NCBI RefSeq assembly: GCF_044704955.1
Contig: NC_091980.1
Coordinates: forward strand, 7,130,001 to 7,194,000
DNA: 64,000 bases
Origin: Pristiophorus japonicus
Lineage: Eukaryota
Reading direction: 5' to 3'
Numbering within the stretch: position 1 is the first letter of the stretch; each line of letters starts with the position of its first letter. This document shows positions 5,996 through 49,888 of the stretch, one piece after another. Position numbers and translations under genes: made by a program. The notes beneath the pieces were generated by a model, which ran no database searches, was not told where the DNA came from, and saw nothing but the letters and a program-made list of their open reading frames with translations.

Positions 5996-6040
5996 TTGCC
6001 TGCACGGCAGGAAGTTTCACACCTTCAGCTGCTCTGTATT
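5996..6040 (-). CDS. CD74: CD74 penultimate exon: [14 protein letters not shown]
   Basis: Strong acceptor ttgtttctttcaatcctcag and consensus donor GTAAGT; 45 nt, phase 1/1, open in the expected frame. There is little sequence homology to confirm it. Confidence 0.68.
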
Positions 6041-9000: not shown

Positions 9001-12000
9001 AGATCAAGAAAACTAAGACGTACGTTCACAGTTATACAGTGGCAGACGAGTCTCTGTTTGTGGCACCTTGGTTCCATTCAGATAGACGCACCAGCAATCT
9101 CCCGTGCTGGGCCAGCACTGTATGGCTTTGTAGTTGCCCATCTCATCGCATTGGGGACAGAAGATGCCAGGAACAATCATCTTTCCCTTGCACTGCCTCT
9201 GACAGTCGGTTTCCGCCTTGGGTTCTACACAAGGGAAGATAATGACGGACGTCACAAGGGTGCTCTTCACGTGCTAATCTTCTCTGCCTCTGTCCTATGA
9301 TTCTCCGCCTCCTGTTCACATTCCTCCATGGCTGCCCCACCCCCAATTCCCTATCTCTGTAACCTTCTCCAGCCCTACAACCTTCCGAGATCTCCCAATT
9401 CTGGCCTCTTGATAAAACCTCTGAGTTCCATCGCTCCGCCATTGGCAGCCGTGCCTTCAGCTGCCTGGGCCCCAAGCTCTGGAACTCCCTCCCTAATCTT
9501 CTCCTCTGCTTTTAATTCGCTCCTTAAAACCTGCCTCCTTGACCAAGATTTCCTGTCCCAATATCTCCTTGTGTGGCTCGGTGTCAAATCGCTCCTGTGA
9601 AGCGAATGGTACATTTTACCACATCAAACTTGATGCCTCTGCATCTCCATTCGAGACGCGCAGGACTGCGAGGTGGTGCTGAGCTGGGTTTCATAACTGT
9701 TCTGACTCCTGGCTCTCCAGTAGAAGGAGGAGGGGGAACGTTCCAGGGGCGGGGAGAGAGGTTGTGTCTCAGTATCCTTCTTCTTCTTAGCCACCCCGAG
9801 ACCCCCCCCCAACCCCGGAGTCGAGGATGACTTGCTTCCGCACTAAAAGGAGTTCTCAGGTGAGTGATGAGACCAATGCGGGATGTACAGTCTCTGTCAC
9901 AGGTGGGGCAGACGGTGGTCGGAGGGGCGGGTGGGTGGGGGGCTTGGTTTGTCGTGCGCTCCTTCCGCTGTTTGTACTTTGCTTCTGCGTGCTCCCGGCG
10001 AAGAGATTCAAGGTGTTTGGCGTCTTCTCGGATGCTCCTCCTCCACTTTTTGAGCCGGTCTTGGGCCAGCGATTCCCGAGAGTCGGTGGGGATGTTAAAT
10101 TTTTTCACGGAGGCTTTGTGGGTGTCCTTGAAACGTTTTCTCTGCCCTCCTGGGGCTCGCCTGCCGTGACGGAGCTCAGAGTAGAGCCCTTGTTCGGGAG
10201 TCTAGTATCGGGCATGCGGACAATGTCCATCGAGGATGATCAATGCCTCGATGCTGGGGATGTTGGCCTGAGGGAGAATCTGTGGATTCGCTGCCTGAGA
10301 GAGCTGTGGAAGCTGAGTCATTTAATTTAATTTAAGACAGAAATAGACAGCTTCTTAATCAATAAGGGAATAAAGGGATCGTGGGGAACGGGCGGGCAAG
10401 TGCAGCTGAGTCCATGATCGGATCAGCCATGATCGTATTAAATGGCGGACCAGGCTCGAGGGGCCAAATGGCCTACTCCTGCTCCTATTTCTTATGGTCT
10501 TATGTAAACCTCTTCACTCAGAGGGTGGTGAATCTCTGGAATTCTCTGCCCCAGAGGGCTGTGGAGACTCAGTCGTTGAGTATATTCAAGACAGAGATCG
10601 ATAGATCTTTGGATATTAAGGGAATCAAAGGATATGGGGATAGTGCAGGAAAGTGGAGTTGAGGTAGAAGATCAGCCATGATCTCACTGAATGGCGGAGC
10701 AGGCTCGAGGGGCCGAATAGTCTACTCCTGCTCCTAATTCTTATGTTCCTTCTTATGATGGGCCTAAGTTGTGTGGAGAGACCGGAGAAGCTGGAATTGT
10801 TATTCTTGGAGCAGAGAAGGTTTGGAGGAGATTGACCAGAATGGTACCGGGGATGAGGGAGTTCAGTTATGTGGAGTGGGACAGAGACAGGGTATAGGGA
10901 CGGGTTAGGAGACGGAGATGAGGGGACAGGGAGGGGGGAATAAAGCGGGGTGGGATGAGGCTCATGTTTAAAATAATCACTGGCATGGACCAGTTGGGCC
11001 AAATGGCCTGTTTCTGGGCTGTAGATTTGATTATGTAAAAAAAAAACGTTCCTACACACAAGCTATTCTTTACTTGCAGACATAGCTCCTAAACTCCCGT
11101 GTTATTGACTCCCCAGTAGTAGGAAGGAAATGTCCCCCTAATCAATTACCTAATCAAAAACCCTTGAAAGGTTTACAAACCTCAATCAAATCTGCTCTTG
11201 GTCTTCTCTTCTCCAGTGCAAATAGTCCCAAAGATATCAAGTCTCTCCTCATAACCTGAGTCATACCCCCAGCGTCATTCTGATGAATCTAACCTGTATG
11301 CAGTCTATGTCTTTGGCTTGAAGCCCCCAGATGCTCACATGATCTGAATGGTGACAGATTAGGAAAAGGGGAGGTGCAACGAGACCTGGGTGTCATGTTA
11401 CATCAGTCATTGAAAGTTGGCATGGAGGTACAGCAGGTGGTGAAGGCGGCAAATGGCATGTTGGCCTTCATAGCGAGAAGATTTGCATACAGGAGCAGGG
11501 AGGTCTTACTGCAGTTGTACAGTGCCTTGGTGAGGCCACACCTTGAGTATTGTGTACCGTTTTGGTCTCCTAATCTGAGGAAGGACATTCTTGCTATTGA
11601 GGGAGTGCAGCGAAGGTTCACCAGACTGATTCCTGGGATGGCAGGACTGATATATGAAGAAAGACTGGATCGACTAGGCTTATATTCACTGGAATTTAGA
11701 AGAATGAGAAGAGATCTCATAGAAACATATAAAATTCTGCCGGGACTGGACAGGTTAGATGCAGGAAGAATGTTCCTGATGTTGGGGAAGTCCAGAACCA
11801 GAGGTCACAGTCTAAGGGTAAGGGGTAAGCCATTTAGGACCGAGATGAGAAGAAACTTCTTCACTCAGAGAATTATGGAATTCTCTACCACAGAAAGTTG
11901 TTGAGGCCAGTTCGTTAGATATATTCAAAAGGGAGTTAGATGTGGCTCTTACGGCTAAAGGGATCAAGGGGTATGGAGAGAAAGCAGGAATCGGGTACTG

Positions 12001-15000
12001 AAGTTGCAAGATCAGCCATGATCATATTGAATGGTGGTGCAGGCTCGAAGGGCCAAATGGACCTATTTTCTATGTTTCCATCAATGGGTCGAGAACAGAC
12101 CCAGACACGAGTTGAGGAACTACCCCGGTGGGAGAGAGCTTCGGGAACCACAGGTCCACAGTCCCCTGTTCCTCCCTAGCTTGCCACCCTCCCCGTGCAT
12201 CAGGTCTCAAATTACTCATATGGTGCATCGCAAGCTATTGGCCCTGAAATTCCGGCATCCCAGTGTCGGTTCGGAGTTCCTACGGACCCGGGAAGGCATC
12301 GGAAATGTCGGTTTCCAACTCACAATGCGCATACGCTGGAAACCGATCTGCCAAGTTTCTGGCTTGACAGATCCTCCGCAGATCGGGAGCGAGGACACTT
12401 GTAAGTGGAAATTTCTGATATTTACGCTCACAAATGTCCTCAAAAATCTTGCGCTTGAAAAAGCCGGAGCATAGCCTATTTTTACAGTCAAATGTTTTAA
12501 AAAACATATAAAAAATAAAGTTATTAAAACATATTTTATCATTAAAAACCCTCCGCACAACGGTAAGCTTATTTAAACATTTTTTTTTTAAATCGGTAAA
12601 TTATTTTTTTTTAAGACATTAATAACTTTAATTTAAATGAATGTAGTGTAATTATTTTCTATTTTTTATTACTGTTTTGGGTGTTTGGGGCTGTGTTTTG
12701 GGTGTTTCGGGCTCTATCACAATCATAGTAAGAGGAGTTTAGGACCCTGCGGAACTCCTGTTACTATGATACCTTACCTGATTGGCTGCCCAGAGCCATG
12801 TGACTCCAGCTCGAGGCCTGCGCATGCGTCGACGTGCATGGGCTGCGACTGGCAGTCAGGGGAGGCCTCAGCATCGGAAAGTCCAACGTGGGCACCAGCT
12901 TAAGGTAGGTGCGTAATTTTTCCCTAAAATGCTCGCGGGAAGGCCAGACCGGAATATTTTCTGAAAGGAATCTATCTCATTAACATGTGACTGAATCAGC
13001 ACCAACTGCTTCCGCCATCTCCCTTGGCTATGTTCCCGCTAAGGCACGCAGTAATCTGAGAGGTCCCACACAGTCCGCCTATCGACTTTTACATTGTAAT
13101 GTGTTTAAGGAGGGGGTCATCATCATAGGCCGTCCCTCGGAATCGAGGAAGACTTGCTTGCACTCTTAACATGAGTCCTCGGGTGACGGAGCAGTCCAAT
13201 ACGAGAGCCACAGTCCCTGTCACACGTGGGACAAGTAGTCGTTGAGGGAAGGGCTGGAGTTGTCCATTCGAGTTCTGACGTTCCAGGTCCCGAACTTCAT
13301 GTTCGAGGAGTGGAAGATGCCCCTGCGCGAGTTCTTTTAACGTGGGGTGGTCGTTGCACACTGGCTACCACACGGGTTTAGCTGAGCAAGGCCTTGGTCC
13401 AGTGGCAAGGGGGTCCAAGACGACTGGAGACCAGGCTCTGCTATATGGGCCCAGTTGCCTACGGCGAGATGTTGGCCACAGGCTTGGCGCTGGGTAGCGC
13501 CCTTGATGGTAGGTATATACTTGCATTGGAGGCCGTTCAGGGCAGGATCACTCGGTTGATTCCTGAGACCAAGGGATTGTCTTATGAGGAAAGGTTGAGC
13601 AGGTTGGGCCTGTACTCATTGGAGTTGAAGAATGAGAGGCGGTCTTATTGAGACGTATAAGATTCTGAGGGGGATTGACAGGGTAGATGCAGAGAGGATG
13701 TTTCCCCTCGTGGGGGAATCTCGAACTAGGGGGCATAGTTTCAGAATAAAGGGTCGCCCATTTAAAACGGAGACGAGGAGGAATTTCTTCTCTCAGAGTG
13801 TCGTGAATCTTTGGAATTCTCTGCCCCAGAGAGCTGTGGAGGCTGGGCCATTGAATGTATTTAAGGCGGAAATAGACAGATGGTTGAACGTTATGGGAGT
13901 AAAGGGGTTATGGGGTGTGGGCGGGGAAGTGGAGTTGAGGCCAAGATCAGATCAGCCATGATTTTATTGAATGGCGGAGCAGGGACAGGGCCGCTAAAGG
14001 ACTAGCGGCCGAGAGCGTCGGCATTTGCGCCGCTTGGCAAATTCAGCGTGCCGGTGCCGGTGGCGCTGAGGAGTGTCGGCGGGAATGTAACACCAGTGTG
14101 CAAAGCCCCGGGAATCGACACGGAGGCAACATTTGATTTTGCGCTGCACCCCCTAATGACCCCGCCAGAGAAGGCCTGGCGTGCAGCGCTGTCCCGGGGC
14201 GCTAAAGGAAGGAATGCCTGCACAAGTTAAGTGCGAGTGTAATTTTTTTTTTTGCGGTTTAACTTTAAAAGAAAAGAAAGACTTGCATTTATATAGCGCC
14301 TTTCAAGACCACCGGGTGTCTCGAAGCGCTTGACAGCCAATAAAGTACTTGTGAAGTGTATTCACTGTTGTATAAGATTATGAGGGGGCTTGACAAGGTG
14401 GATGAAGAGAGGATATTTCCACTGATGGGGGAGACTAGAACTAGAGGGCATAATCTTAGAATAAGGGGCCGCCCATTTAAAACTGAGATGAGGAGGAATT
14501 TCTTCTCTCAGAGGGTTGCAAATCTGTGGAATTCGCTGCCTCAGAGAGCTGTGGAAGCTGGGACATTGAATACATTTAAGACAGAGATAGACAGTTTCTT
14601 AAGGGATAAGAGATTAAGGGGTTATGGGGAGTGGGTGGGGAAGTGGACCTGAGTCCATGATTAAATCAGTCATGATCGTATTAAATGGCGGAGCAGGCTC
14701 GAGGGGCCGAATGGCCGACTCCTGCTCCTATTTCTTATGTTCTTATGTAATGTGAGAAATGCAGCAGCCAACTTGTGCACAGCAAGCTCCCACAAACAGC
14801 AATGTGATAATGACCAGATCATCTGTTTTTCTGTTATGTTGATCGAGGGACAAATATTGGCCCCAGGACACCGGGGATAACTCCCCTGCTCGTTCTCAAA
14901 ATAGTGCCATAGGATCTTTTATGTCCACGTGAGAGAGCAGACGGGGCCTCAGTTTAATGTCTCATCCGAAAGACGGCACCTCCGACAGTGCGGTACTCCC

Positions 15001-18000
15001 TCAGTACTGCCCCTCCGACAGTACAGTGCTCCCTCAGTACTGCCCCTCTGGCAGTGTGGCGCTCCCTCAGTACTGCCCCTCCGGCAGTGCGGCACTGCCT
15101 CAGTACTGCCCCTCCGACAGTGCGGTGCTCCCTCAGTACTGCCCCTCCGACAGCACAGTGCTCTCTCAGTACTGCCCCTCCGACAGCACAGTGCTCCCTC
15201 AGTACTGCCCCTCCGACAGCACAGTGCTCCCTTAGTACTGCCCCTCCGACAGCACAGTGCTCCCTCAGTACTGCCCCTCCGACAGCACAGCGCTCCCTCA
15301 GTACTGCCCCTCCGACAGTGTGGTGCTCCCTCAGTACTGCCCCTCCGACAGTGCGGCGCTCCCTCAGTACCGCCCCGACAGTGCAGCGCTCCCTCAGTAC
15401 TGCCCCTCTGACAGTGCAGCACTCCCTCAGTACCGCCCCCTGACAGTGCAGCACTCCCTCAGTACTGCCTCTCCAACAGTGCAGCACTCCCTCAGTACTG
15501 CCTCTCCGACAGTGCACCGCTCCCTCAGTTGCCTCTCCGACAGTGCGGCACTCCCTCAGTACTGCCCCTCCGACAGTGCACCGCTCCCTCAGTACTGCCC
15601 CTCCGACAGTGCGGCACTCCCTCAGCATTGCACTGGAAGTGTCAGCCTAGGTTTTTGTGCTCAAGTCCCTGGAGTGGGACTTGAACCCACGACCTTCTGA
15701 CTCCGAGGCGACAGTGCTGCCCACTGAGCCACGGCTGGGGTTATTTGTGGTGAGTATTGTATCGGAAATGGGTTTTTTTTTCCCCCGATTCTTTTTTATT
15801 TGCAGGGAGGCCTCTCTCAGGGCACTACGAAGCCGGCTCTTTAGCTCGGGCTATTCAGTTGCTTACCCGGCCTATCGATCTAAGAGAGGTGTGCATCGCT
15901 TCCCTTAGCGCTCTGCTCCACTCTCAGGGCCCAGCAACCAAATTCTGTGGCTGCCATTTTTCGACGCTAAATTTAGCGATTGCCCGGCATTAACGCCTCA
16001 AGAACCCTCCAAACCGAATTTCTCGTCTCGCGGTTTCTCTGGTACCTAACCAGCCGGCCCCCACTGGGCCCTTTGCCCTCCTGCGTTTCCTGTGGATTAA
16101 ACAATCGGTTGCCATAGTTACCCGGCGTTTTCAGCTGGACGTCGGGAGGTCCGGTCTTGGAGGCGCTCATTATCAGCGGCTGCATCACCATGCTGGAGAA
16201 GATCTTTCTCCCTGTCGCACACGGAAACAATGCGGCGGTGTCAAAGGCGTGTGACAAAACGTTGACGCAATCGGAGAGCCAGCGGGAATGGAGCCGACGC
16301 GGAGTTTGCCCGCTTATGCCCGTCACCCCCAACAGCTCTCGCTGACCAACGCTGGCTCCTAGTCCGGCCATGCCGCGAGTGTAAAATTCTCATAATTGCT
16401 TTCAAATCCCACCATGACCTCGCTTCCCCCACCCCCCCAATCCCTATCTCTGTAACATCCCCCCAGCCCTGCAACCCTCCGAGATATTTTTAAATGTGGT
16501 GAGGGTTTCTGCCTCTACCACCCTTTCAGGCCGTGAGTTCCAGACCCCCACCACCCTCTGGGTGGAAAAAGTTCTCCTCAACTCCCCTCTAATCAGAAGA
16601 GCATGAGAAATAGGAGCAGGAGTCGGCCATACGGCCCCTCGAGCCTGCTACGCCATTTAATACGATCATGGCTGATCCGATCATGGACTCAGGTCCACTT
16701 CCCTGCCCGCTATTCCCCGATCAGTTAAGAAGCTGTCTATCTCTGTCTTAAATACATTCAATATCCTTCTACCAATTACTTTAAATCTAAGCCCCCTGGT
16801 TGTTGACTCTACTGCTAAGGGAAACAGGTCCTTCCTATCGACTCTATCCAGGCCCCTCATCATTTTATACACCTCAATAAGGTCTCCCCTCAGCCTCCCG
16901 TGTTCCAAGGAAAACAACCCCAGCCTATCCAATCTTTCCTCATAGCTAAAATTCTCCAGTCCGGGCAACATCCTGGTAAATCTCCTCTGCACCTTCTCTC
17001 ACGCAATCACACTAGAGAGGAGCGGGAGAGGGGGAAATCATTGAACAAAATACTTGAGAAAGAGAGCGATAACATTATGCGACTGATGCGTACCACTGGG
17101 TTTGGGTTTGATTTCGGGTTCGGGTTCAGGTTGGGGTGCGCTGGTTGTTGGAGTCTTCTTCTCCTCCGGCTTTACGAGTTCGAAGAGCAGCCAGTTTCGG
17201 AGCCAGGCTTCAAAGTTCTGTAGACAATACAGTGGAAGACAAAAATATTTTCACACGGTCAGTTAGTTAAACATTTGGAGAGGGCTGACTCCAACTGCAA
17301 TGCGGGATTACTTTAAGCGAGAGAATAATATTTATTCTGCTTGTTAAGTATTGAGGCATCGCTCGTTATCAGTGTCAGTCGTGGCTCAGGGTGCAGCACT
17401 CTCTCGTCTCTGAGTCAGAGGTTGTGGGTTCAAGTCCCACTCCAGGAACTCGAACACATGAATTCAGGCTGACACTCCAGTGCAGTACTGAGGGAGTGCC
17501 GCACTGTCGGAGGGGCAGTGCTGAGGGACTGCCGCACTGTCGGAGGGGCAGTGCTGAGGGAGCGCCGCACTGTCGGAGGGACAGTACTGAGGGAGCGCTG
17601 TACTGTCAGAGGGGCAGTGCTGAGGGAGTGCCGCACTGTCGGAGGGGCAGTACTGAGGGAGTGCGGCACTGTCGGAGGGGCAGTACTGAGGGAGTGCTAC
17701 ACTGTCGGAGGGGCTGTCTTTCAAATGAGACGTTAAACCGAGGCCCTGTCTGCTCTCAGGTGGTCGTAAAAGATCCCATGGCTACTATTTTGTCGAAGAG
17801 CAGGGGAGTTCTCCCTGGGGCCGATATTTATCCCTCAATCAACAAAACAAAAACAGATGATCTGGGTCATTATCATATTGCTGTGTGTGGGAGCTTGCTG
17901 TGCGCAAATTGGCTGCTGCGTTCCGCACATTACGAAAGTGGCCACACTTCAAAAGTACTTCATTGGCTGTAAAGTCCTTTGAGACGTCCGGTGGTCGTGA

Positions 18001-21000
18001 AAGGCACTATATAAATGCAAGTCTTTCTTTCTTTATCAAGCTCAGACCACAGAGTTTCCTCAGTAATGGATCGGAATTTGCGGTCAGTGAGGAGAGCCAT
18101 TGGTCCCCGGAGAAAGCTTCCCGCAAAGGTCTCGCAATCTCTGTGGCCAGAAGTTCGGCTTTTCCGACGTTGAGTTGGGATCAGCGCGAGTTAATGGGGA
18201 ATCCCTGACGCGAGCTGCTGTGTCATCGACAAGCAGCCAATCACGATGCAGGATTCTCACGGACCGGGAACCAGGAAGTGAGTAAGCGCCTTTGATTCTA
18301 ACTTTTTAATATCGAGAGCAAAACAAAAAGATTGGGTCTGCAAATAAAAATGAACAAAAAAATGTTTAATTTAATTTTAAAAATTGTAATTTTTTTATAA
18401 TAGAGAAATTTGACACTCCACAAAATTAAAAATCAGTTTTTCGGTCACTAGACTGTTAAAACCCCCAGTTACACCGGATCCAACATGGCCCAACTTTCAA
18501 TGGGGTATTTAACAGCGAAAAACTCAACAGTTTCACGGATTACAGGCCGTGTGTGTTGGGGGGGGTGGGGGGAGGGGATTGGTGGGGATGGGGGGGGGCA
18601 GAATAGATTTGAGGGGCTGAATGGCCCACTGCAGTTCCTATGCTGTGGGGGAATCAAAAGCTAGGGGTCATCAGTATCAAATAGACAACTAATAAATCCA
18701 ATAGGAATTTACCCAGAGAGCGGTGAGAATGTGACACTCGCTCCCATGGGGAGCGGCTAAGGCGAGTAGCAGTGATGTGATGTGTGTGTGCGCACTAGGT
18801 CCGTGCAGCAGAGCTGGTCTCCAGTCAGTCTTGGTTAACCCTTGCCACTGGACCAAGACCCAGCTCTGTCAGGCCCGTGTGGTGGCTGGTGTGCAATGGC
18901 CACCACACGTTAAAATAATCCACCCACAGGCATCTTCCACCCTCGAGTTCGGGATCCGGAATATTAGGTCCTTCATTGAAACACCTGTGAACTCATCCCT
19001 TTTTTTGGTGGGAGCAAGTCATCCTCGCTTCGAGGCACGGCCTAAGAAGAAGAATTTAAGGGGAAGCTGGATAAACACTTGAGGGAGAAAGGAATCGAAG
19101 GATATGGTGATGGGGTGAGATGGAGATGGGTGGGAGGGGGCTGGTGTGGAGCATAAACACCGGCATAGATCAGACGGGCAAAATGGCACGTTTCTGTGCT
19201 GTAAAAAAAAAAATGTTTTTTTTTTGTTCCGGGATGTGGGCGTCGCTGGCAAGGCCGGAATTTATTGCCCATCCCTAGTTGGCCCTTGAGAAGGTGGTGG
19301 TGAGCCGCCTTCTTGAACCGCTGCAGTCCGTGTGGTGAAGGTGCTCCCACAGTGCTGTTAGGGAGGGACTTCCAGGATTGTGACCCAGCGACGATGAAGG
19401 AACGGCCGATATATTTCCAAGTCGGGATGGTGTGTGACTCGGAGGGGGGAATGTGGAGGTGGTGGTGTTCTGTAACAAAGCATCAAACGGTACGAACCTT
19501 CCAATCAGAATCATTCAGGCTCTCTTTCAGCAAGTTGACGTTGGTGGGGAAGCTGTTGTTGAATTCTGGCATCTCCTCGGTTGCGTTCTCTTTCTGCCAG
19601 TGAAAAGGAGAAGAAAATGTCATGGTCGGCCAACCATTCCTCCAGAGGTACAGTCACACCATGGCTCAATTATGTTAAACCTGCTGTTAAGGTAGAGTTG
19701 GTGCTACTTTCAGACTTCCTTTGAGTCCATCGAATGCTTTTTTTACCCACCTCATAGTTGAGAAAATTGGGCAAAGGGACAAAGCCTGCACTAGCTTGGG
19801 GCATTTTTCCACATTCAAGTCATGATATGAAAGCACGTTGTTGCTATAGAACCATTTGCTCCACCCTGCCTGCGTCCAACTAGTTCCGCACACCCTCCCC
19901 GCTCTTACCCCACAGCCCTGCAGATTTCCCCTTATTAAATCAAAGCTTTAAAATCACTGCTAAGGGCGCAGCTGGAGTATGGCGTCCAATTCTGAGCACC
20001 GCACTTTAGTAAGGATGTTAAGGCCTCAGAGTGGCCGGGGAGGAGATTTACGAGAATGGCTCCAGGGATGAGGAACTTCAGTTACATGGAGAGACTTAGA
20101 GCGGTGAAGGTTAAGGGAATAGAGATGTACATAATTATGAGGGGTTTTGATAGTTTCTCTTTATCTATTCTGTTTCCAGGGGCAGGAGGGTCAGTAACCA
20201 GAGGGACACAGATTTCAGGTAATTGGCAAAAGAACCCGAGGGGGAGATGAGGAGAATATTTTTACGCAGCGAGTTGTTGTGATCTGGAACGCGCTGCCTG
20301 AAAGGTCGGTGGGAGCAGAGCCAATAGCGACTTTCAAAAGGGGATTGGACAAATACTGGAAAAGGAAACGTTTGCAGGGCAGTGGGGAAAGAGCAGGGGG
20401 GAGTGGGACTGATGGGATCGCTCTCTCACAGAGTGGGCGCAGGCACGATGGGCCGAATGGCCTCCAACTGAGCTGTGACGTCCTACGATTCTGCATTCGA
20501 AAGATTACCTTCAGCAGTTCCCGCACTTGTTCCAGCAATGTCAGGGGTTTGGCGGGAGTTGGTTTCGGAGCCTGTGAGACAACAAGCAAAAAAATAACCC
20601 CAAATTATATTTCTTTACGGGTTACAGTAATAAAGTATTTTCAAATCAACATACATCGCACAATCTTGGCCAGGTCAGGTCCTGTCTGGAATATCGGCTT
20701 CAGATCTGGGCACCGTGCTTCAGGAGGGAAATATTGGGTCAGTGGGTACTGCTCGTGCCCGAGTCACAATAGTCCCACTCCAGTAAACCCAAATATAAAA
20801 TCTAGGCTGACACTCCCAGTGCAGTGCTGTCAGAGTACCCGTACTGAGGGAGCGCCGCACCGTCGGAGGGGCAGTACTGAGGGAGTGCTGCACTGTCAGA
20901 GGGGCAGTACTGAGGGAGCGCCGCACTGTCGGAGGGGCAGTACTGAGGGAGCAGCGCACCGTCGGAGGGGCAGTACTGAGGGAGTGCTGCACTGTCAGAG

Positions 21001-24000
21001 GGGCAGTACTGAGGGAGCGCCGCACTGTCGGAGGGGCAGTACTGAGGGAGTGCTGCACTGTCGGAGGGGCAGTACTGAGGGAGTGCTGCACTGTCGGAGG
21101 GGCAGTACTGAGGGAGCGCCGCACTGTCGGAGGGGCAGTACTGAGGGAGCGCCGCATTGTCAGAGGGGCAGTACTGAGGAAGCGCCGCACTGTCGGAGGG
21201 GCAGTACTGAGGGAGCAGCGCACCGTCGGAGGGGCAGTACTGAGGGAGTGCTGCACTGTCAGAGGGGCAGTACTGAGGGAGCGCCGCACTGTCGGAGGGG
21301 CAGTACTGAGGGAGTGCTGCACTGTCGGAGGGGCAGTACTGAGGGAGTGCTGCACTGTCGGAGGGGCAGTACTGAGGGAGCGCCGCACTGTCGGAGGGGC
21401 AGTACTGAGGGAGCGCCGCATTGTCAGAGGGGCAGTACTGAGGAAGCGCCGCACTGTCGGAGGGGCAGTACTGAGGGAGCAGCGCACCGTCGGAGGGGTA
21501 GCACTGAGGGAGCACTGCACTGTCAGAGGGGCAGTGCTGAGGGAGTGCTGCACTGTCAGAGGGGCAGTACTGAGGGAGTGCTGCACTGTCAGAGGGGCAG
21601 TACTGAGGGAGCGCCGCACTGTCAGAGGGGCAGTACTGAGGGAGTGCCGCACTGTCGGAGGGACAGTACTGAGGGAGCGCCGCATTGTCGGAGGAGCAGT
21701 ACTGAGGGAGCGCCGCACTGTCGGAGAGGCAGTACTGAGGGAGCGCCGCATTGTCGGAGGAGCAGTACTGAGGGAGCGCCGCACTGTCGGAGGGGCCGTC
21801 TTTCGAATGAGACGTTAAACTGAGGCCCTGTCTTCCCTCTCAGGTGGACGTAAAAGAGCCCATGGCCACTATTTCAAAGAAGAACAGGGAAGTTCTCCCC
21901 AGTGTCCTGGCACAATATTTATCCCTCAATCAACATAACAAGAACAGATTATCGGGTCATTATCACATTGCTGTTTGTGGGAGCTTACTGTGCGCAAATT
22001 GGCTGCCGCGTTTTGATGTGGTGACGGCCGATGTGTAAATGTAAGTTCTGTCTGTCTTTCCATCTACTGATGTCTTCTGCAGCTGGGCATGGTCTGAAAT
22101 CCCCAGGACAGCCATCGCAAAGTACACGGGTGAACAAAATTAACCGAGAATGGGTGGGAAAGCCCCAAATTGGTGAAATTAGATGCTCTGACCTTAACCG
22201 AAAAACCACAGTCAGTTTGTTCCTCCCACTCCTCAATCAGTATTTCAACGGGGAGATTGTGTTGCAGATTAGATGCAGCAAAGTCAGGCGCTATTTGGAG
22301 AACTTTGTACAACAACAACAACAACGTTGTATTTATATAGCGCCTTTAACGTAGTGAAACGTCCCGAGGCGCTTCACAGGAGGTTTATATGCAATAAAAA
22401 TTTGACACCGAGCCGTATAAGTAGAAATGAATGCAATAGAGGTAGGTTTTAAGGAGTGTCTTGAAGGAGGAAAGAGAGTTCGCAAGGCGGGGAGGTTTAG
22501 GGAGAGAATTCCAGAGCTTGGGGCCCAGGCAACAGAAGGCACGGCCACCGATGGTGGAGCGATTATAATCAGGGATGGTCAGGAGGGCAGAATTAGAGGA
22601 GCGCAGACATCTCGGGGTGTTGTGGGGCTAGAGTAGATTACAGAGATAGGGAGGGGGCGAGGGCCATGGAGGGATTTGTAAACAAGGATGAGAATTTTGA
22701 AATCGAGGCGTTGCTTAACCGGAAGCCAATGTAGATCAGCGAGTACAGGGGGTGATGGGTGAGCGGGACTCGGTGCGAGTTAGGACACAGGGCAGTGAGC
22801 ACAGTGGGTGATGGGTGAGCGGGACTTGGTGCGAGTTAGGGCATGGGACAGTGAGCACAGGGGGTGATGGGTGAGCGGGACTTGGTGCGAGTTCGGACAC
22901 AGGGCAGCCGAGTTTCGGATCACCTCCAGTTTACGTAGGGTAGAATGTGGGAGGCCAGCCAGGAGTGTGTTGGAATAGACAAGTCTAGAGGTAACAAAGG
23001 CATGGATGAGGGTTTCAGCAGCAGATGAGCTGAGGCAAGGACGGAGACGGGCGATGTTATGGAGGTGGAAATAGGCGGTCTTAGTTATGCTGCGGATATG
23101 TGGTCGGAAGCTCATTAAAGGGTCAAACGGTAAGAAAGACTGTTGCCTAGAAGATTTGTGGCAGTATGATCTGAGCAAGTAGCAGGGCCATAGCAAACAC
23201 ATTGTAAAGACCCACTCGCTCCCACCTCCCTCCGCCCCGATCAATGGGGTCTCGGTCCCACTCCCACCAGGATGCTGCATGCATGTCTGCTGTTACCAGG
23301 TGTGCCAACACCAATCGTGCAGAGTCCCAACTGAAGGCTGAGGAGTTAACCCTGACTGAGGATAGGGCCTCTTACCAGTGGCGAAGCCTAGCTTGGCCAA
23401 GTGTGGGGGAGGGATGGGGGTGGGGATCTGACTTGAGATTTTGCCCAGTTGGCATGGAGGGGGCTTCGATTTGGGAATTGCGGAGGTGGGGGTGGGAGGT
23501 GCGGCGGAGATCATCATTATAGGCAGTCCCTCGGAATCGAGGAAGACTTGCTTCCACTCTAAAAATGAGTCCTGAGGTGGCTGGGACAGTCCAATACGAG
23601 AACCAATAGTCCCTGTCACAGGTGAGGCAGATAGTCGTTGAAGGAAAGGGTGGGTGGGACAGGTTTGCCGCACGCTCCTTCCGCTGCCTGCGCTTGTTTT
23701 CTGCACGCTCTCGTTGCCGAGATTCGGCGGGGGAGGGGGGGGGGTGGAGAGAATGCCGACTGGCCCCAGTCCGCAAGCAGAACCGGGAAAGCACCCAGAT
23801 CCGCAGAGCGAACCCAGAGCTCGAGGACGGAGAGGGGGGTAATGGAGGGGAATCCTCCAAAGCTGCGTTGACCGACCTCAAAGGTGAGGAGCTCTCCCTC
23901 CACTGGCTCTGCCACTGGGGCCCCCTAACCCCTGCTTGAGCTGGTGTTTCAGTTGCCTCGACTCCCACCAAGTTCCCACCAGGAGCTCGGGCAGGTTTGC

Positions 24001-27000
24001 GTCGGAACAGCAGCATAATTTTGGCACCCTTTGTATTTACCTGATGCTTTATCTCATCCTCAGGACATCTTCGTAGGCAATGAGTTACTTTTGAAGATCA
24101 GTCACTCTTGTTAAGTAGGCCGAACCCAACAGCCAATTTTGCGCACCACAAGATCCAGCAAATCAGTGAAGGAGATAACCAGCTACTTAAGAACATAAGA
24201 ATTAGAAGCAGGAGTCGGCCATTCGGCCCCTCGAGCCTGCTCCGCCATTCAATCAGATCATGGACTCAGCTCCACTTCCCTCCCCGCTCCCCATAACCCT
24301 TCACTCCCTTATCGTTAAAATCTGACCATCTCCGCCTTAAATATATTCAATGACCCAGCCTCCACAGCTCCCTGGGGTAGAGAATTCTGAAGATTCGCGA
24401 CCCTCTGAGTGAAGAAATTCCTCCTCATCTCTGTGTTAAATGGGCGACATCCCCACCTTCACCTGGGAGTCCCTGGCCCCATAAAACTACCGGATTTTCG
24501 TAAAAACCCATCTGGTTCACGAATGTCCTTTAGAGAAGGAAATCTGCCGTCCTTACCCGGTCTGGGCCAATGTTTGATTCCAGACCCACAGCAATGTGAT
24601 TCACTCTTAACATAAGAACATAAAAAACATAAGAAATAGGAGCAGGAGTCCACCATTCGGCCCCTCGGCCTGCTCCGCCATTTAATAAGATCACGGCTGA
24701 TCTTCGACCTCAACTCTATTTTCCTGCACTAACCCCATATCCCTTGATTCCCTTAATAGCCAAAAGTCTTGAATATACTCAATGATTGAGCCTCCACAGC
24801 CCTCTGGGGCAGAGAATTCCAAAGATTCACCACCCTCTGAGTGAAGAAATTCCTCCTCATCTCAGTCCTAAATGGCCGACCATTTTGGTGTTGGTTGGGT
24901 TTTTTTTTTAATTAATTCATTCATTTATACCAGTGCGACATTTTCCTTTCTTGACTTTCGCTGCTGAAGTTTACCTTTGGTTTGACACTCTTCGGGTCAA
25001 TGTAAGCAATAGGCATGTCCATCATCATTGGTCTCAGACGCATCATAGGTTTAGGCCCTGAAGAAATAAAATGCAATGACATTTTTTTGAGTACATCTCA
25101 TAGAATCACAGAACAGCACTGCACAGAAGGAGGCCATTCGGCCCATCGAGTCTGCGCCGGCTCTATTCGAAGAGCGATCCAGTCAGTTCCACTGCCCCCT
25201 GCTCTTTCCCCATATCCCTGCAATCTTTTCTCCTTCCAAGTCTTTATCCAACTCCCTTTTGAAGGCTACGATTAAATCTGTATCCATCGCCCTCTCAGGC
25301 CATGCGTTCCAGATCCTAACCACTCGCTGCGTAAAAAAGTTTTTCCTCATGTCGCCTTTGGTCCTTTTGCTAATCACCAATCTGTGCCCACTGGTTCTTG
25401 ACCCTTCAGTATTATGAACACCTCGATTAAATCCGCCCTCCTTGACCTCCTCTGCTCCAAGTAAAATAATCCCAACTTTTGCAATCTCTCCACATCACGG
25501 TACGCACCATAAGGGAAGGATCACTCAGTTGATTCCAGAGACGAAGAGTTTGTCTTATGAAGAAAGGTTGAGCAGGTTGGGCCTATACTCATTGGAGTTT
25601 AGAAGAATGAGAGGTGATCTTATTGAAACGTATAAGATACTGAGGGGGCTTGACAAGGTAGATGCAGAGAGGATGTTTCCCCCCGTGGGGGAATCTAGAA
25701 CTAGGGGGCATAGTTTCAGAATAAGGGGCCACCCAGTTAAAATGGAGATGAGGAGGAATTTCTTCTCTCAGAGGGTCGTGAATCTTTGGAATTCTCTGCC
25801 CCAGAGAGCTGTGGAGGCTGGGCCATTGAATATATTTAAGGTGGAAATAGATTTTTGAACGATAAGGGAGTCAAGGGTTATGGGGAGCGGGTGGGGAAGT
25901 GGAGTTGAGGCCAGGATCAGATCAGCCATGATCTTATTGAATGGCGGAGCAGGAGTAGGCCAATTGGCCTCTCGAGCCTGGAGCAAGAGTAGGCCATTTG
26001 GCCCCTCAAGCCTGGAGCAGGAGTAGGCCATTTGGCCCCTCGAGCCTGGAGCAGGAGTAGGCCATTTGGCCCCTTGAGCCTGGAGCAAGAGTAGGCCATT
26101 TGGCCCCTCGAGCCTGGAGCAGGAGTAGGCCATTTGGCCCCTCGAGCCTGGAGCATGAGTAGGCCATTTGGCCCCTCGAGCCTGGAGCTGGAGTAGGCCA
26201 TTTGTCCCCTCGAGCCTGGAGCAAGAGTAGGCCATTTGGCCCCTCGAGCCTGGAGCAGGAGCAGGCCATTTGGCCCCTCGAGCCTGGAGCAGGAGCAGGC
26301 CATTTGGCCCCTCCTGCTCCAGGCTCGAGGGGCCAAATGGCCTACTCCTGCTCCTGCTCCTATTTCTTATGTTCTTATGATGGGTTATGGGAAACAGGCA
26401 GGGAAATGGAGTTGAGGCCAAGATCAGAACAGCCATGATCTTATTCAATGGTGGAGAAGACTCGAGTGGAATCACCTGGAGAGTTATTTTTTTTTAAAAT
26501 CAGATTTTGAAACCTTTCTCCTTTCAATGGCGGGGCTGAGTTTGGCTTTCAGTCAGGTTGACGTCGCCAGTACTGTGCGCTCTGCAATCTATTTACTATC
26601 GCTCCGCATCAAGTGGCTGCAGATTTATTTGTGAGTTTACCAAAAATATGAACATGCGGACAATGACGGACAGGTAAAGACCATCTGGCCCATTGAGCCT
26701 AACCCACACAATTGCCATACCCCGTGTATCACAACATATACACTCCGCCCTGTAATGTCTGCAAGCTTGTCATGTTTGTAGCTCCACACTGTGGATGTGG
26801 ACGTATTGTGCACTGCAACTACTGAGTTAATAATTAAACAGAGCCAGGCATGTTAAGGAGGCTTCCGAGAGAGCTGCCTGCCATGTTAGAAGCTGTGTGA
26901 ATATATCACACGCCCCACCCGAAACCCTGTGATCTTCTGGGAGAGGCCAAAAAACAGATAAAAAACCCAAGCCAATTGGAGAAGAAAAATCTGGGCAATT

Positions 27001-30000
27001 CCTCTCCAACCCATCTTGGCGATCGACACTAGTCCAGGAGATCCCTCTGGCCATTGAATTCCCTGCAGTACCGACCTTCTGTAAGAGTTAATCTCCGCCG
27101 CAACAAGGAACAAATCCAACTCTCGCTCGAAGGACTTCAGTGAGTCTGTCTCCACCACATGAGACGGCAGCGTGTTTCAGGGGTCGACTACTCTCTGGGA
27201 AAAGAACCACCTCCTGACATCTAACCTAGATCTAGCCCCATACAACTTAAATTTGTGCCCGTCCTGCCTAAACTATTTAATTTAAATAAACTCTCAGCTG
27301 GAACACCGTTTATTCCCTTCATTATCTTATAAACCTCAATCAGCTCCAAGCTAAGTTTACGCTAATGGTTGAGTTGAAAGAAAAAGAGAGAGTGGAGGGG
27401 AGGTACGTACTGGCTGGGCTCCGATACTTGTCCTCGATCCTATGTGTGGTCTTCTGCAGCTCGGTTATCTTGTCCTGTTGCTTCAGCAAGAACATGACGC
27501 TGGCAATTTGTCCTGCGATCAATACGGCGGCCAGCACCGACACGCCCGTCCAAAGCAGGGTCCGAGACCACCTGCTGCTGCTGGAATAGAGAGCAGACAC
27601 ATGAGTCGGAGGAACACAGTACCGCACCGTCACAGATACAATCAGAGATACTTACAGAAGGAGGCTATTCGGCCCCTCGTGCCTGTGCCGGCTTCTTGTG
27701 TCAGCTGTGGCTCAGTGGGTAGCTCACTCATCCAAATCTATCCACATACACCAGCAGGTTGTGGGTTCAAGTCCCGCTCCAGGGACTTGAGCACAAAATT
27801 CTAGGCTGACACTCCAGTACAGTGCTGAGGGAGCGCTGCACTGTCGGAGGGTCAGCGCTGAGGGATCGCCGCACTGTCGGAGGGTCAGTACTGAGGGAGC
27901 GCCGCACTGTCGGAGGGGCACTGCTGAGGGAGCGCCGCACTGTCGGAGGGGCAGTACTGCGGGAGCGCCGCACTGTCGGAGGGGCAGCGCTGAGGGATCG
28001 CCGCACTGTCGGAGGGTCAGTACTGAGGGAGCGCCGCACTGTCGGAGGGGCAGTGCTGAGGGAGCGCCGCACTGTCGGAGGGGCAGTGCTGAGGGATCGC
28101 CGCACTGTCGGAGGGGCAGTGCTGAGGGAGCGCCGCACTGTCGGAGGGGCAGTGCTGAGGGATCGCCGCACTGTCGGAGGGGCAGTGCTGAGGGAGCGCT
28201 GCACTGTTGGAGGGGCAGTGCTGAGGGAGCGCTGCACTGTCGGAGGGGCAGTGCTGAGGGAGCGCTGCACTGTTGAAAGTGCCATCTTTCGGATGAAACG
28301 TTAAACCAAGGCCCCGCCTGCTCTCTCAGGTGGATGTAAAAGATCCCATCGCACTATTTCGAAGAGGAGCAGGGGAGTTCTCCCCGGTGTCCTGGGGCCA
28401 ATATTTATCCCTCAATCAACATAACAAAAAAAAACAGATTATCTGAGTCATCATCACATTGCTGTGTGTGGGAGCTTGCTGTGCACGAATTGGCTGCCGC
28501 GTTTCCCACATTACACTACACTCCAAAATATTATTGGCTGTAAAGCGCTTTGAGACGTCTGGTGGTCATGAAAGGCGCTATATAAATGAAAGTCTTTCTT
28601 TTGGAAGAGCAGTCGTGGATTTTATCCAGAACCCTGTAAGTTCCTCATTCTCCAGTATCTGTCCAACTTATAGGATTACATCGGGATATACAGCATAGAA
28701 ACAGGCCATTCGGCCCAACCAGTCCATGCCGGCGTTTATGCTCCACTCGAGCCTCCTCCCGTCTTTCCTCATGTAACTATCAGCGTAACCCTCTATTTCC
28801 TTCTCCCTCATATGTTTATCCAGCCTCCCCTTAAATGCATCGATACTATTCGCCTCAACCACTCCCTGTGGCAGCGAGTTCCACATTCTCACCCCTCTCT
28901 GGGTAAAGAAGTTTCTCCTGAATTCCCGGTTGGATTTCTTGGTGACTATCTTATATTGATGGGATGAATATTGCCCAGGGACCGGGGATAACTCCCCTGT
29001 TCTTCCTCGAAATAGTGCCACCTGACAGAGCAGACGGGGCCTTGGTTTAATGTCTCACCCGAAAGACAACACCTCCGACAGTGCAGCACTCCCTCAGTAC
29101 TGCCCCTCCGACAGTGCAGCACTCCCTCAGTACTGCCCCTCCGACAGTGCAGCACTCCCTCAGTACTGCCCCTCCGACTGTGCAGCACTCCCTCAGTACT
29201 GCCCCTCCGACAGTGCAGCACTCCCTCAGTACTGCCCCTCCGACAGTGCAGCACTCCCTCAGTACTGCTCCTCCGACAGTGCAGCACTCCCTCAGTACTG
29301 CCCCTCCGACAGTGCAGCGCTCCCTCAGTACTGCCCCTCCGACAGTGCAGCGGAGTCCCTCAGTACTGCCCCTCCGACAGTGCAGCACTCCCTCAGTACT
29401 GCCCCTCCGACAGTGCAGCGGAGTCCCTCAGTACTGCCCCTCCGACAGTGCAGCGCTCCCTCAGTACTGCTCCTCCGACAGTGCAGCACTCCCTAACTAC
29501 TGTACTGGAGTGTCAGCCAGGATTTTTGTGCTCGAGTCTCTGGAGTGGGACTTGAACCTACAACCGTACGACTCAAGAGTTGAGGATGTTGCCCACTGAG
29601 TCACAGCTGAAGATTCGTCCTCAATCCCGGGAGCTTTGGCAACCTTACTAAGGGCTTCTCTTGTTTTCCCTCGACTGTAGCCTTTCTTGATAACTCAAAT
29701 CATCTGACCCGAGGGATCAGTGCCTTGGTCATTCTCCGCAGTACTTCCAGACATATTTGTCCTTGTGCCCAAAACTCTTTCAGCGTGACAGACTCAGATT
29801 CAGGCTGTACTGATCCTGGTGAATGCTGGTCCACTTGCAACGCCAGCCTCTCCCCTAGTCCGTCGGTCACCAGTCAATGGGGCCGAAATTCAGCTCCCGA
29901 GCGAGGCCCGTTAATGGCGGAGCCGAGCGGCCGCCGATTTCTGGTCGGATGGGCGCCGCGAGCTAAATTCAGCTCGGGGGAGGGGGTGGGGGGTTTTCTG

Positions 30001-39200: not shown

Positions 39201-40532
39201 CAGCGCTGGAAAGTTAGCAAATTACCTTTTGTTCCCTGAACCCGGCGCAACGTGATAACTTTGATGATTCCTGATACCCCTCGATGCGAAGAGCCAAGAA
39301 TTAAAGGTGACAGAGAAAAGAAAGGTCTTGCATTTCAATAGCACCTTTTGCGACCTCAAGATGTCCCAAAGCGCTTCACTTTTTAAAATATACTTTATTC
39401 ATATATAAAAATTTGCACAATACATTGGAAAGCAGTTCAGTACATTTGGATGCAGTCAGCAATACAACCAAAGCACCTTTGAAGTGTCGTCACTGTTGTA
39501 ATGTGGGAAACGCAGCAGCCAATTTGTGCACAGCAAGCTCCCACACACAGCGATGTGATAATGACCCAGATCAACTTGGCTTTTCGTGATGTTGATTGAG
39601 GGATAAATATTGACCTGGACAGCTGGGGGAGGGGCGGTGAATTCCCCCCTGCTCTTCTTCGAAATAGGGCCCTTGGGATCTTTTCCGTCCACGCTTTTAA
39701 TGCATTAACCCTCCAAGTCAAACGCACCATCCCGGCGTGAGACATATAACTAGCCCTTCCTTTATTGTCGCCAGGTCACAATCCCTGGAACTCCCTCCCT
39801 AACGGCACTGTGGGAGCACCTTCACCACACGGACTGCAGCGGTTCAAGAAGGCGGCTCACCACCACCTTCTCAAGGGGCAATTAGGGATGGGCAATAAAT
39901 GCCGGCCTTGCTAGCGATACCCACAGCCTCAGAATAAGTATTTTAAAAAAGATGATAATTCGTGGCAAGATGCAGCAGGTAAGAAGTTACCCTTCGAAGG
40001 GTCATCGACCAGAACCGATAACTCACAAGAACACACGGGAAATAGGAGCAGGAGTCGGCCATTTGGCCCCTCGAGCCTGCTCCGCCATTCAATACGATCA
40101 TGGCTGATCTGATCATGGACTCAGTTCCACTTCCCCGCCCGCTCCCCATAACCTCTTATCGCTCAAAAATCTGTCTATCACCACATCAAATATATTCTGT
40201 TATATAATTTGTTTCACTCTCTCCTTAGATGCTGCCTCACCCACTGAGATTTCCAGCATTTTATAATTTTATTAAGTTACTTGAGGTCTTCAGGTGGTCC
40301 GGCAGATTCTAATCACCAACCAGACCAGCCAAAATTTGATTATTGTAATGTCAGGCTGGGAAGAGATGTCGCCAATCCAGCTCCAGAATTTTACCAATTG
40401 CCCCCACACTAATTAAAAAATACACCTTTACCTCTGCGCTGGGGGCATGCTCCTGGCTTCCACGTTGGGACTGCTGGCAATATCTTGTTGTGAATTGTTC
40501 AGCAAGGCACTCTGCTGCTCATCGGCTGACAT
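5996..40532 (-). CDS. CD74: MHC class II-associated invariant chain (CD74/Ii), spliced gene. Exons 40432-40532, 27411-27580, 24975-25057, 20509-20571, 19498-19593, 17094-17217, 16122-16211, 9024-9224, 5996-6040; terminal exon uncertain
   Basis: Nine exons with AG/GT boundaries and consistent phases (2,1,0,0,0,1,1,1,1) join into one frame. The protein has an acidic-dileucine N-terminus, a type II TM with LIAGQ..QQ, a Met-rich CLIP, a trimerization domain (F..N...LK....DWK / [13 protein letters not shown]) and a thyroglobulin-1 domain. Exon sizes of 63 and 96 nt match mammalian CD74 exons 4 and 5 as I recall them. Confidence 0.96.
6270..6545. repeat. ~58-bp minisatellite, about 5 copies
   Basis: Unit approximately ATTCAATGGGTGGGTAGGGTCCACGATAGGGGAGAGTGTCCATGGGCTGTGGGAGGGT. 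Confidence 0.85.
7462..8897 (-). mobile_element. Cluster of CR1/HER1-like LINE 3' fragments (minus copies at 7462-7903 and 8410-8897, a degraded plus copy between)
   Basis: [22 protein letters not shown] motifs and (TTCTTATG)n tails. Confidence 0.85.
9024..9224 (-). CDS. CD74: CD74 thyroglobulin type-1 domain exon (p41-type cassette exon)
   Basis: [67 protein letters not shown], with P.CDE.GNY...QC and CWCV motifs. 201-nt symmetric phase 1/1 exon; acceptor cttgtgtag, donor GTACGT. Confidence 0.95.
9780..10260 (-). mobile_element. RTE-like LINE 3' fragment (related pieces at ~13120-13450, 18780-19045, 23510-23720, 45880-46060, 52745-53210)
   Basis: W..SIRE...[21 protein letters not shown]-terminal zinc-finger-like motif; shared 3' UTR ...gaagcaagtcatcctcg. 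Confidence 0.7.
11345..12078 (+). mobile_element. HER1/CR1-like LINE, 5'-truncated
   Basis: ORF 11374-11904 encodes the ORF2 C-terminus; TTTTCTATGTTTC tail. Confidence 0.9.
14272..15735 (-). mobile_element. DeuSINE (SacSINE1-like) with an internal 33-bp tandem array (~14979-15633); CR1 fragment nested at 14370-14746
   Basis: tRNA-like head (TGGCTCAGTGG, GGTTCAAGTCCC), Deu-domain-like core, about 20 units of CAGTACTGCCCCTCCGACAGTGCGGCGCTCCCT. Confidence 0.85.
16122..16211 (-). CDS. CD74: CD74 extra linker exon: (G)[33 protein letters not shown]-like
   Basis: Acceptor ttgtttccgtgtgcgacag, donor G|GTAACT. 90-nt symmetric phase 1/1 exon in unique sequence, in frame with both neighbours. Confidence 0.78.
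17094..17217 (-). CDS. CD74: CD74 exon 6: [41 protein letters not shown](G)
   Basis: Acceptor gtctacag, donor G|GTACGC. Has the FE.W...WLLFE signature of the trimerization domain followed by a Pro-rich linker. Confidence 0.95.
17372..18032 (+). mobile_element. DeuSINE with a 33-bp array (~7 units, 17478-17712)
   Basis: Same head, core and tail as the other copies. Confidence 0.85.
19498..19593 (-). CDS. CD74: CD74 exon 5: [32 protein letters not shown]
   Basis: 96 nt, phase 0/0, AG/GT boundaries. Matches human [25 protein letters not shown]; N-glycan sequons NAT, NNS, NDS. Confidence 0.94.
20509..20571 (-). CDS. CD74: CD74 exon 4: [21 protein letters not shown]
   Basis: 63 nt, acceptor gtctcacag, donor AAG|GTAATC. 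The end matches the trimerization helix A pattern (human TEDHVMHLLQ). Confidence 0.9.
20737..22010 (+). mobile_element. DeuSINE with a 33-bp array (~29 units, 20841-21795)
   Basis: Same family; 264-bp higher-order periodicity inside the array. Confidence 0.85.
22310..23125 (-). mobile_element. L2-like LINE 3' part with an internal ~55-bp triplication (22740-22905)
   Basis: [37 protein letters not shown] motif. Confidence 0.85.
24975..25057 (-). CDS. CD74: CD74 exon 3: CLIP region (R)[27 protein letters not shown]
   Basis: Acceptor ttatttcttcag, donor AAG|GTAAAC, 83 nt, phase 1 to 0. Has PKP followed by a Met-rich CLIP. Confidence 0.93.
25512..26380 (+). mobile_element. CR1-like LINE 3' end carrying an inverted 34-bp tandem array (25946-26310)
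   Basis: ORF2 C-terminus, then about 10.5 units of GAGCAGGAGTAGGCCATTTGGCCCCTCGAGCCTG, then the normal tail. Confidence 0.88.
27411..27580 (-). CDS. CD74: CD74 exon 2: transmembrane segment [56 protein letters not shown]
   Basis: Acceptor tctctattccag, donor GTACGT. Aligns with human [37 protein letters not shown]. Confidence 0.95.
27699..28600 (+). mobile_element. DeuSINE with a 33-bp array (~14 units, 27815-28278)
   Basis: Same family. Confidence 0.85.
28965..29608 (-). mobile_element. DeuSINE (3'-truncated) with a 33-bp array (~13 units, 29071-29505)
   Basis: Same family, opposite orientation. Confidence 0.85.
29879..30664. mobile_element. Non-autonomous DNA transposon (MITE-like, probably PIF/Harbinger)
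   Basis: Terminal inverted repeats GGGGCCGAAATTCAGCTCC / GGGGCAGAATTTTGGCCCC (16/19 match); AAT on both flanks (3-bp TSD); GC/CpG-rich noncoding interior with (CA)n at 30259-30290. Confidence 0.72.
30752..32428 (+). mobile_element. Two 5'-truncated CR1/HER1-like LINEs (30752-31566 and 31858-32428)
   Basis: ORF2 C-terminal motifs and 8-bp tails. Confidence 0.9.
32990..34980 (+). mobile_element. DeuSINE with a 33-bp array split by an antisense, internally deleted HER1-like LINE (33320-34390)
   Basis: SINE head plus array to 33319; minus-strand RT motifs [10 protein letters not shown] and FADD; the array resumes at ~34403 and runs into the SINE core and tail. Confidence 0.82.
37280..38850. repeat. 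Two compound TG-rich micro/minisatellites (37280-37815 and 38097-38850)
   Basis: (TG)n interrupted by recurring CATTTAAG or CATCAGTGTTT spacers. Confidence 0.92.
40432..40532 (-). CDS. CD74: CD74 exon 1: cytoplasmic tail [33 protein letters not shown](S)
   Basis: ATG at 40532; acidic dileucine-like sorting signal DEQQSALL; donor AG|GTAAAG, phase 2, fits exon 2; promoter motifs lie just upstream. Confidence 0.88.
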
Positions 40533-48991: not shown

Positions 48992-49888
48992 AAGACTTGT
49001 ATTTATATAGCAACTTTAACGACCTCAGCACGTCCCAAAGTGCTTCACAGCCAATGCAGTACTTATTGAAGTGTAGTCACTGTTGTAATGTAGGAAACAC
49101 AGCAGCCAATTTGTGCACAGCAAGCTCCCATGAACAGCAATTACCAGATAATCTGTGGTTAGTAATATTGATTGAGGGATAAATATTGGCCAGGACACCG
49201 GGGAGAACTCCCCTGCTCTTCTATGAAATAGTGCCATGGGATCTTTTACATCCACCTGAGAGAGCAGACGGGGCATCGGTTTCACGTCTCATCCGAAAGA
49301 CACCACCTCCGACAGTGGGGCGCTCCCTCAGTACTGCCCCTCCGACAGTGCGGCGCTCCCTCAGTACTGCCCCTCCGACAGTGCAGCGCTCCCTCAGCAC
49401 TGCCCCTCCGACAGTGCGGCGCTCCCTCAGTACTGCCACTCCGACAGTGCGGCACTCCCTCAGTACTGCCCTCCGACAGTGCGGCACTCCCTCAGTACTG
49501 CCCCTTCGACAGTGCGGCACTCCCTCAGTACTGCCCCTCCGTCAGTGCGGCACTCCCTCAGTACTGCCCCTTCGACAGTGCGGCACTCCCTCAGTACTGC
49601 CCCTCCATCAGTGCGGCACTCCCTCAGTACTGCCCCTCCGACAGTGCGGCACTCCCTCAGTACTGCCCCTCCGACAGTGCGGCACTCCCTCAGTACTGCC
49701 CCTCTGACAGTGCGGCACTCCCTCAGTACTGCCCCTCCGACAGTGCGGCGCTCCCTCAGTACTGCCCCTCCGACAGTGCAGCGCTCCCTCAGTACTGCCC
49801 CTCCGACAGTGCAGCACTCCCTCAGCACTGCACTGGGAGTGTCAGCCTGGATTAATGTGCTCAAGGCTCTGGAGTCAGACTTGAACTA
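48992..49888 (-). mobile_element. DeuSINE with a 33-bp array (~16 units, 49306-49832)
   Basis: Same family. Confidence 0.85.

Follow-up and report, generated by a model that had tools for sequence, protein, structure and literature searches.

In mammals, CD74 (Ii) carries one copy of CLIP, which lies before the trimer domain. The CLIP region is reportedly duplicated in CD74a of ostariophysan fish, as Dijkstra and Yamaguchi are said to have described in 2019, and Criscitiello et al. reportedly found an extended linker in the Ii of cartilaginous fish in 2012. Here, we describe an additional, CLIP-like copy that lies beyond the trimer domain in shark CD74. The shark protein shares with the mammalian one its family, its domain order, a Met-rich core with prolines, and several possible registers. 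Like the shark copy, the ostariophysan duplication places a second CLIP copy in the Ii of a fish without DM, a comparison made here by description only. As described, that duplication of the CLIP region belongs to one teleost clade, whereas the shark copy has its own exon beyond the trimer domain and occurs in all three chondrichthyan lineages. The extended linker of cartilaginous-fish Ii is the same region as this extra exon, and the nurse shark protein P0012 carries the exon.

For the human complex, the accessible part of PMC11087810 describes CLIP as running from the membrane-proximal helix through the class II groove, with a membrane-distal and flexible trimer domain. The same part reports that Ii-class II assemblies of 3:1, 3:2, and 3:3 coexist and that cathepsin S seems to cleave Ii somewhere between CLIP and the trimer domain. 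In cartilaginous fish, DM is absent, three of the four main groove hydrogen-bond residues are kept, and two ancient lineages of class II occur in sharks, according to excerpts of PMC8010645. How CLIP is exchanged without DM in cartilaginous fish, and in the majority of bony fish, is posed as an open question in the available sections of PMC8010645, PMC9586880, and PMC4219347.

The window analyzed was a 64-kb stretch of Pristiophorus japonicus DNA, which contains a CD74 gene on the minus strand. Membership in the family follows from PF09307, PF08831, and PF00086, found in that order, together with a type II membrane segment. The closest relatives among the matches listed were shark proteins with 56-63% identity. 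Exon coordinates were assigned by tblastn; a motif scan had missed exons 1, 2, and 5. When joined, nine exons of the window (40532 to 5996) gave residues 1-324 of the 326 residues of P0001 with zero mismatches, and the last coding exon (2 residues plus the stop) was not located in the 64-kb window. The features are given below.

40432..40532, minus strand: coding part of exon 1, cytoplasmic tail (tblastn mapping)
27411..27580, minus strand: exon 2, transmembrane segment and membrane-proximal helix (tblastn mapping)
24975..25057, minus strand: exon 3, canonical CLIP, 83 nt, phase 1-0, with two invariant prolines and Tyr109
20509..20571, minus strand: exon 4, 63 nt (tblastn mapping)
19498..19593, minus strand: exon 5, trimerization domain, 96 nt (tblastn mapping)
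17094..17217, minus strand: exon 6, 124 nt, phase 0-1, end of the trimerization domain and Pro/Glu-rich tether (PF08831)
16122..16211, minus strand: extra exon for the second CLIP-like segment (residues 213-242 of P0001, of which 213-230 form the conserved core)
9024..9224, minus strand: thyroglobulin type-1 exon, 201 nt, phase 1-1, cassette, equivalent of mammalian 6b (PF00086)
5996..6040, minus strand: post-thyroglobulin exon, 45 nt, phase 1-1 (tblastn mapping)
14979-15625, 17482-17714, 20841-21796, 27820-28273, and 29072-29502: arrays 1-5 of a 33-nt unit (both orientations across the ten arrays)
33088-33318, 34391-34654, 40874-41532, 42323-42981, and 49306-49831: arrays 6-10 of the same unit (both orientations across the ten arrays)

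The extra exon of this CD74 runs from 16211 to 16122 on the minus strand, measures 90 nt, has AG/GT borders (the acceptor ends in gcgacag and the donor begins with gtaact), and is in phase 1-1. It encodes (G) plus 29 residues and sits between the trimerization exon (PF08831) and the thyroglobulin exon (PF00086). An initial annotation, made from the letters of the window, had proposed a symmetric 90-nt exon between these two, and the borders, the frame, and P0001 all agree with it. P0001 is a UniRef CD74 isoform X1 protein and includes the extra exon; the trimerization-exon query was identical to it throughout. Among the eight internal exons, the extra exon has the acceptor with the poorest pyrimidine tract (12/20, compared to 14-17 in the other seven), which is why a blind exon scan missed it.

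Several other observations were made in the window. The 33-nt tandem unit forms its ten arrays, in both orientations, in introns and upstream of the gene, and two of the arrays flank the extra-exon region. An open stretch at 43938-44274 (minus strand) resembles a LINE reverse-transcriptase fragment. The thyroglobulin domain (9024-9224, minus strand) has two cysteines more than most shark orthologs. The post-thyroglobulin exon (5996-6040, minus strand) lacks the acidic...Ser-Gly motif found in the other eight long chondrichthyan tails, a motif that is likely the equivalent of the mammalian chondroitin sulfate site.

The segment encoded by the extra exon was found widely in cartilaginous fish. 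Its motif, G-R-K/R-I-F/Y-S-S-h-x-M-K/R-P-M-h-h-x-L/M-P or a close form, was present in 38/40 CD74 records from sharks, rays, and chimaeras, the range over which the initial annotation had said it should be kept. The two records without it are P0009, a draft-genome prediction, and P0040, which has a different 5' part. For statistics, 19 full-length chondrichthyan proteins, about one per species, were taken from the 40 records; these 19 species share ancestry, and their p-values are not independent trials. Columns 213-230 were free of gaps in all 19 aligned proteins (holocephalans, rays, and sharks), and both flanks had indels. The core reached a mean BLOSUM score of 2.75, above both flanks (1.76 and 0.20) and below the first CLIP (3.86). 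In a best-window permutation, the BLOSUM conservation gave p-values of 0.004 (13 columns), 0.003 (18 columns), and 0.07 (10 columns), and the conserved window was not significant by strict identity (p 0.16). Judging from these alignments, the core is constrained by residue class, and less tightly than the first CLIP.

Two prolines six residues apart mark the core, the first present in 18/19 proteins and the second in 16/19. The copy in P. japonicus is the second most diverged of the 19 and lacks the second proline, so the constraint is relaxed in this species. In the nurse shark (P0012, P0038), a model species, Ser replaces the otherwise conserved first proline and makes the repeat hard to see there.

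The linker that holds the segment is 66-74 residues long in 19/19 chondrichthyans and 17-33 residues long in 124/128 bony-vertebrate CD74s. These 128 came from the best-listed matches of 370, after three records without the anchor pattern were dropped, and the remaining 4/128 are frogs with an insert of their own. The alignment of human Ii (PDB 8VRW chain C) passes through the site with no insert, in keeping with the earlier claim that mammals have no exon here. In several frogs, an insert of 43-44 residues stands at the extra-exon position (P0016, P0095, P0228, P0304, P0314, P0318). It is alternatively included, being present in P0016 and P0228 and absent in P0018 and P0223. A conserved N-L-V-Y/F-A-S/T motif runs through it; the insert is not CLIP-like (p 0.7) and matches the front half of the shark extra exon at p ~0.005, a comparison chosen post hoc.

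Next, we consider the likeness of the segment to the exon-3 CLIP. The gapless match that the initial annotation had read as a duplicated CLIP amounts to 3/12 identities in this species. It was not significant here by linker shuffles (p 0.059 and 0.15) or by whole-protein shuffles (p 0.20 and 0.35), and exon 3 and the extra exon showed no significant likeness at the DNA level (p 0.74). The likeness is clearly non-random only when relatives are added. With a profile built from chondrichthyan exon-3 CLIPs alone, the segment ranked first among the other windows in 17/19 proteins, and in one of the two exceptions the best window was a shifted one inside the same exon. Linker shuffles that preserve composition gave p<=0.005 in 15/19. 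Above that value were this species (0.059), nurse shark (0.03), and the two holocephalan-type copies, both weak, from C. milii (0.03) and a chimaera-like contig (0.24). Profile against profile, the segment scored 20.8 with the first CLIP, a score reached in 0/2000 permutations and comparable to those of true ortholog CLIP pairs, which were 21.4 (ray-finned vs amphibian), 18.0, and 14.7. The first CLIP was also its best match among 7 profiles, and in the catshark the segment and the protein's own CLIP share 6/12 core residues. Each of the two exons starts in phase 1 with GG; their donor phases differ (0 for exon 3, 1 for the extra exon). Nothing in the first CLIP corresponds to G-R-x-I-F/Y-S-S, the best-conserved columns of the segment. 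The proposed likeness and a likely duplication are supported across species; in this species alone the likeness does not exceed chance, and the front half with its I-F/Y-S-S is not CLIP-like. Over 24 bony-vertebrate CD74s, the CLIP-like profile of the segment gave best p-values of 0.017 and 0.047, both at the canonical CLIP region, and an ESM Atlas search with the segment returned no usable match.

These comparisons suggest that the extra exon is probably an ancient duplicate of the CLIP exon, made before chimaeras split from sharks and rays, and exon 3 is its likely donor. We file the segment, which resembles CLIP in sequence, as CLIP-like rather than as CLIP. This is because the segment follows the trimer domain instead of preceding it on the side of the membrane-proximal helix, because Pfam PF09307 marked a single stretch and no second CLIP in 8/8 proteins and gave no hit for the extra exon alone, and because its occupancy of the groove is a prediction.

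The anchors of human CLIP are a hydrophobic residue at p1, Pro at p6, and a hydrophobic residue at p9. The register first proposed for this gene paired the human proline with the first proline of each shark segment. In an alignment of 18 vertebrate proteins, in which two mis-anchored rows were uninformative, the rat CLIP proline fell over the second shark proline (DMPI) instead. This second proline and Tyr109 are invariant in 19/19 chondrichthyan first CLIPs. The alignment suggests that the proline in the proposed register is probably not the ortholog of the one in human CLIP. That register is weakened further in the segment itself, where it puts Ser/Gly at p1 in 19/19; its p9 is hydrophobic in 15/19. 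The Met that ended the proposed pattern turned out to be peculiar to this species, most others having Val. In the human-orthologous register, set by the second proline, Pro is present in 16/19 and absent in this species, and p9 is hydrophobic in only 3/19. A third register has Phe/Tyr at p1 in 17/19 and hydrophobic residues at p6 and p9 in 19/19, but a hydrophobic 1-4-6-9 pattern is probable by chance in such a hydrophobic stretch (~0.45 by a hand estimate). Among the three, the predicted register with Phe/Tyr first and hydrophobic residues at 4, 6, and 9 fits best. Human CLIP binds in several registers, 'CLIP1/CLIP2' being two registers of one stretch, as stated in the accessible text of PMC4297300; groove binding by the segment is thus compatible with the register data. 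We rate the prediction that the segment binds the class II groove as an even call.

The extra exon is symmetric (phase 1-1), and skipping it would preserve the frame. The initial annotation had offered toggling of the exon by cassette splicing as one possibility, and the isoform records speak against this. The motif is present in 38/40 records, and although the thyroglobulin exon is skipped in 7/40 chondrichthyan records, the extra exon is kept in 7/7 of these isoforms without a thyroglobulin domain. The cassette is therefore the thyroglobulin exon, as in mammals, where it is exon 6b, which encodes the thyroglobulin domain and accounts for p41/p43 (available part of PMC12731121). Exon 6b and the extra exon are alike as symmetric phase 1-1 neighbours, but the former is skipped in 7/40 records whereas the latter stays in all 7. 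Logan contigs of 934 and 1603 nt encode P0015 and P0020, including the segment, in a single reading frame, and contigs so short with a continuous frame indicate spliced RNA in these relatives. From these records, the extra exon is very likely constitutive, always spliced in.

A working model can be drawn from these results. The segment begins 20-27 Pro-rich residues beyond the trimer domain. An AlphaFold monomer leaves the linker unstructured (pLDDT<50 at 184-243) in a model of low confidence (mean pLDDT 48.9). As in mammals, the first CLIP would fill the groove while the complex assembles. The second segment would hang unfolded from the membrane-distal trimer domain on its Pro-rich tether of 20-27 residues, and it could occupy an empty groove or one from which the first CLIP has been lost. 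It may act while still tethered, or once cathepsins have freed the C-terminal part. Taken as a whole, the reading of the segment as a conserved duplicate of the CLIP exon, constitutively included and predicted to be a second, tethered placeholder for the groove, stands in our estimate at about even chances. The suggestion that the motif arose to serve one of the two shark class II lineages is unlikely because chimaeras and rays share it.

A further extension of the model would make the Ii of DM-less fish a peptide-exchange device, in which the second segment replaces the first CLIP in the groove and later gives way to antigen. The chondrichthyan extra exon and the Met-rich C-terminus of ray-finned fish would both belong to this device, which would have been lost in tetrapods once DM arose. 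We regard this as speculative and improbable.

The ray-finned CD74s have a conserved Met-rich motif after the thyroglobulin domain, with the consensus PRRMMAAPRLMQKT (57 proteins). It lies in the last 25 residues of P0065, P0218, P0222, P0267, P0090, and most listed teleost matches, and P0137, which has no thyroglobulin domain, also carries it. In the form R-R-M-M-x-A-P-x-L/M-M-Q, the motif occurs in gar, bichir, sturgeon, and teleosts. Its match to CLIP profiles was weak (p 0.02-0.5, uncorrected), and its match to the shark segments gave p 0.02-0.05, also uncorrected.

Three other explanations of the segment were weighed. The one that survives best, though we think it rather unlikely, is that the segment descends from CLIP without binding the groove and is kept as a protease-sensitive site or spacer that frees or positions the thyroglobulin inhibitor domain. 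Its I-F/Y-S-S resembles a cathepsin L/S site. The S-S and the G-R before it rank with the best-conserved columns, the first CLIP has neither, and the residue at the expected pocket anchor is Ser/Gly in 19/19. Also in line with this explanation, the accessible portion of PMC12731121 describes Ii as a substrate of cathepsins and its thyroglobulin domain as an inhibitor of these enzymes. However, the exon remains in 7/7 isoforms that have no thyroglobulin domain to free, and a bare cut site would have no need of the conserved half that matches CLIP, M-x-P-M-M-x-D/S-L-P.

It is less probable still, and in our view doubtful, that the extra exon is an older symmetric phase 1-1 exon that became Met/Pro-rich by convergence, its kin being the extra exon of some frogs and the exon for the Ser-Gly tail in coelacanth and sauropsids. 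In 6 frog proteins, the exon found at this position aligns without gaps to the front half of the segment (p 0.004-0.007), and that half also matches the sauropsid tail at p 0.015-0.026. The coelacanth tail was the top match of the front-half profile (0/300 shuffles), the DNA of the extra exon matched the post-thyroglobulin exon of the window (p 0.026), and the 1-1 phases are compatible. Every one of these tests, however, was picked post hoc, after the match had been seen, and their scores of 8-12 reach about half of the 21 obtained with the first CLIP. Once 28 comparisons are allowed for, the match to the tail no longer holds, only 1/24 bony proteins scanned with the front-half profile reached the level of the coelacanth tail, and the segment does not resemble the shark's own tail (p 0.91). 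A mosaic origin, with an old front half and a CLIP-derived back half, is possible. That the segment is an inert linker, its Met/Pro likeness a remnant of an old duplication or an effect of composition, is the least likely explanation because in holocephalans, rays, and sharks indels occur in the flanks but nowhere in the core, and composition-preserving shuffles were beaten in 15/19, even though the likeness is not significant in this species and weak in nurse shark (p 0.03, first proline Ser), the identity-based permutation gave p 0.16, and the segment does not co-vary with the first CLIP within species (p 0.12).

The reading as a CLIP-exon duplicate was also compared to what has been published. 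The literature searched, with most subscription papers outside its reach, did not yield a report of a second CLIP in the Ii of sharks, and the accessible parts of PMC6523485, PMC9103719, PMC6177389, PMC8236899, and PMC13399432 make no mention of one. The segment of the nurse shark is among the least CLIP-like of the 19, and this poor likeness may have hidden the repeat earlier. We put at about one in three the chance that the figures or supplements of Criscitiello 2012 or Dijkstra and Yamaguchi 2019 already show the repeat. A CLIP-like segment in all three chondrichthyan lineages offers a concrete handle on how CLIP is exchanged without DM. If the model is true, a region so far deemed a mere linker is a functional module that Ii acquired or retained in the oldest of the class II systems.
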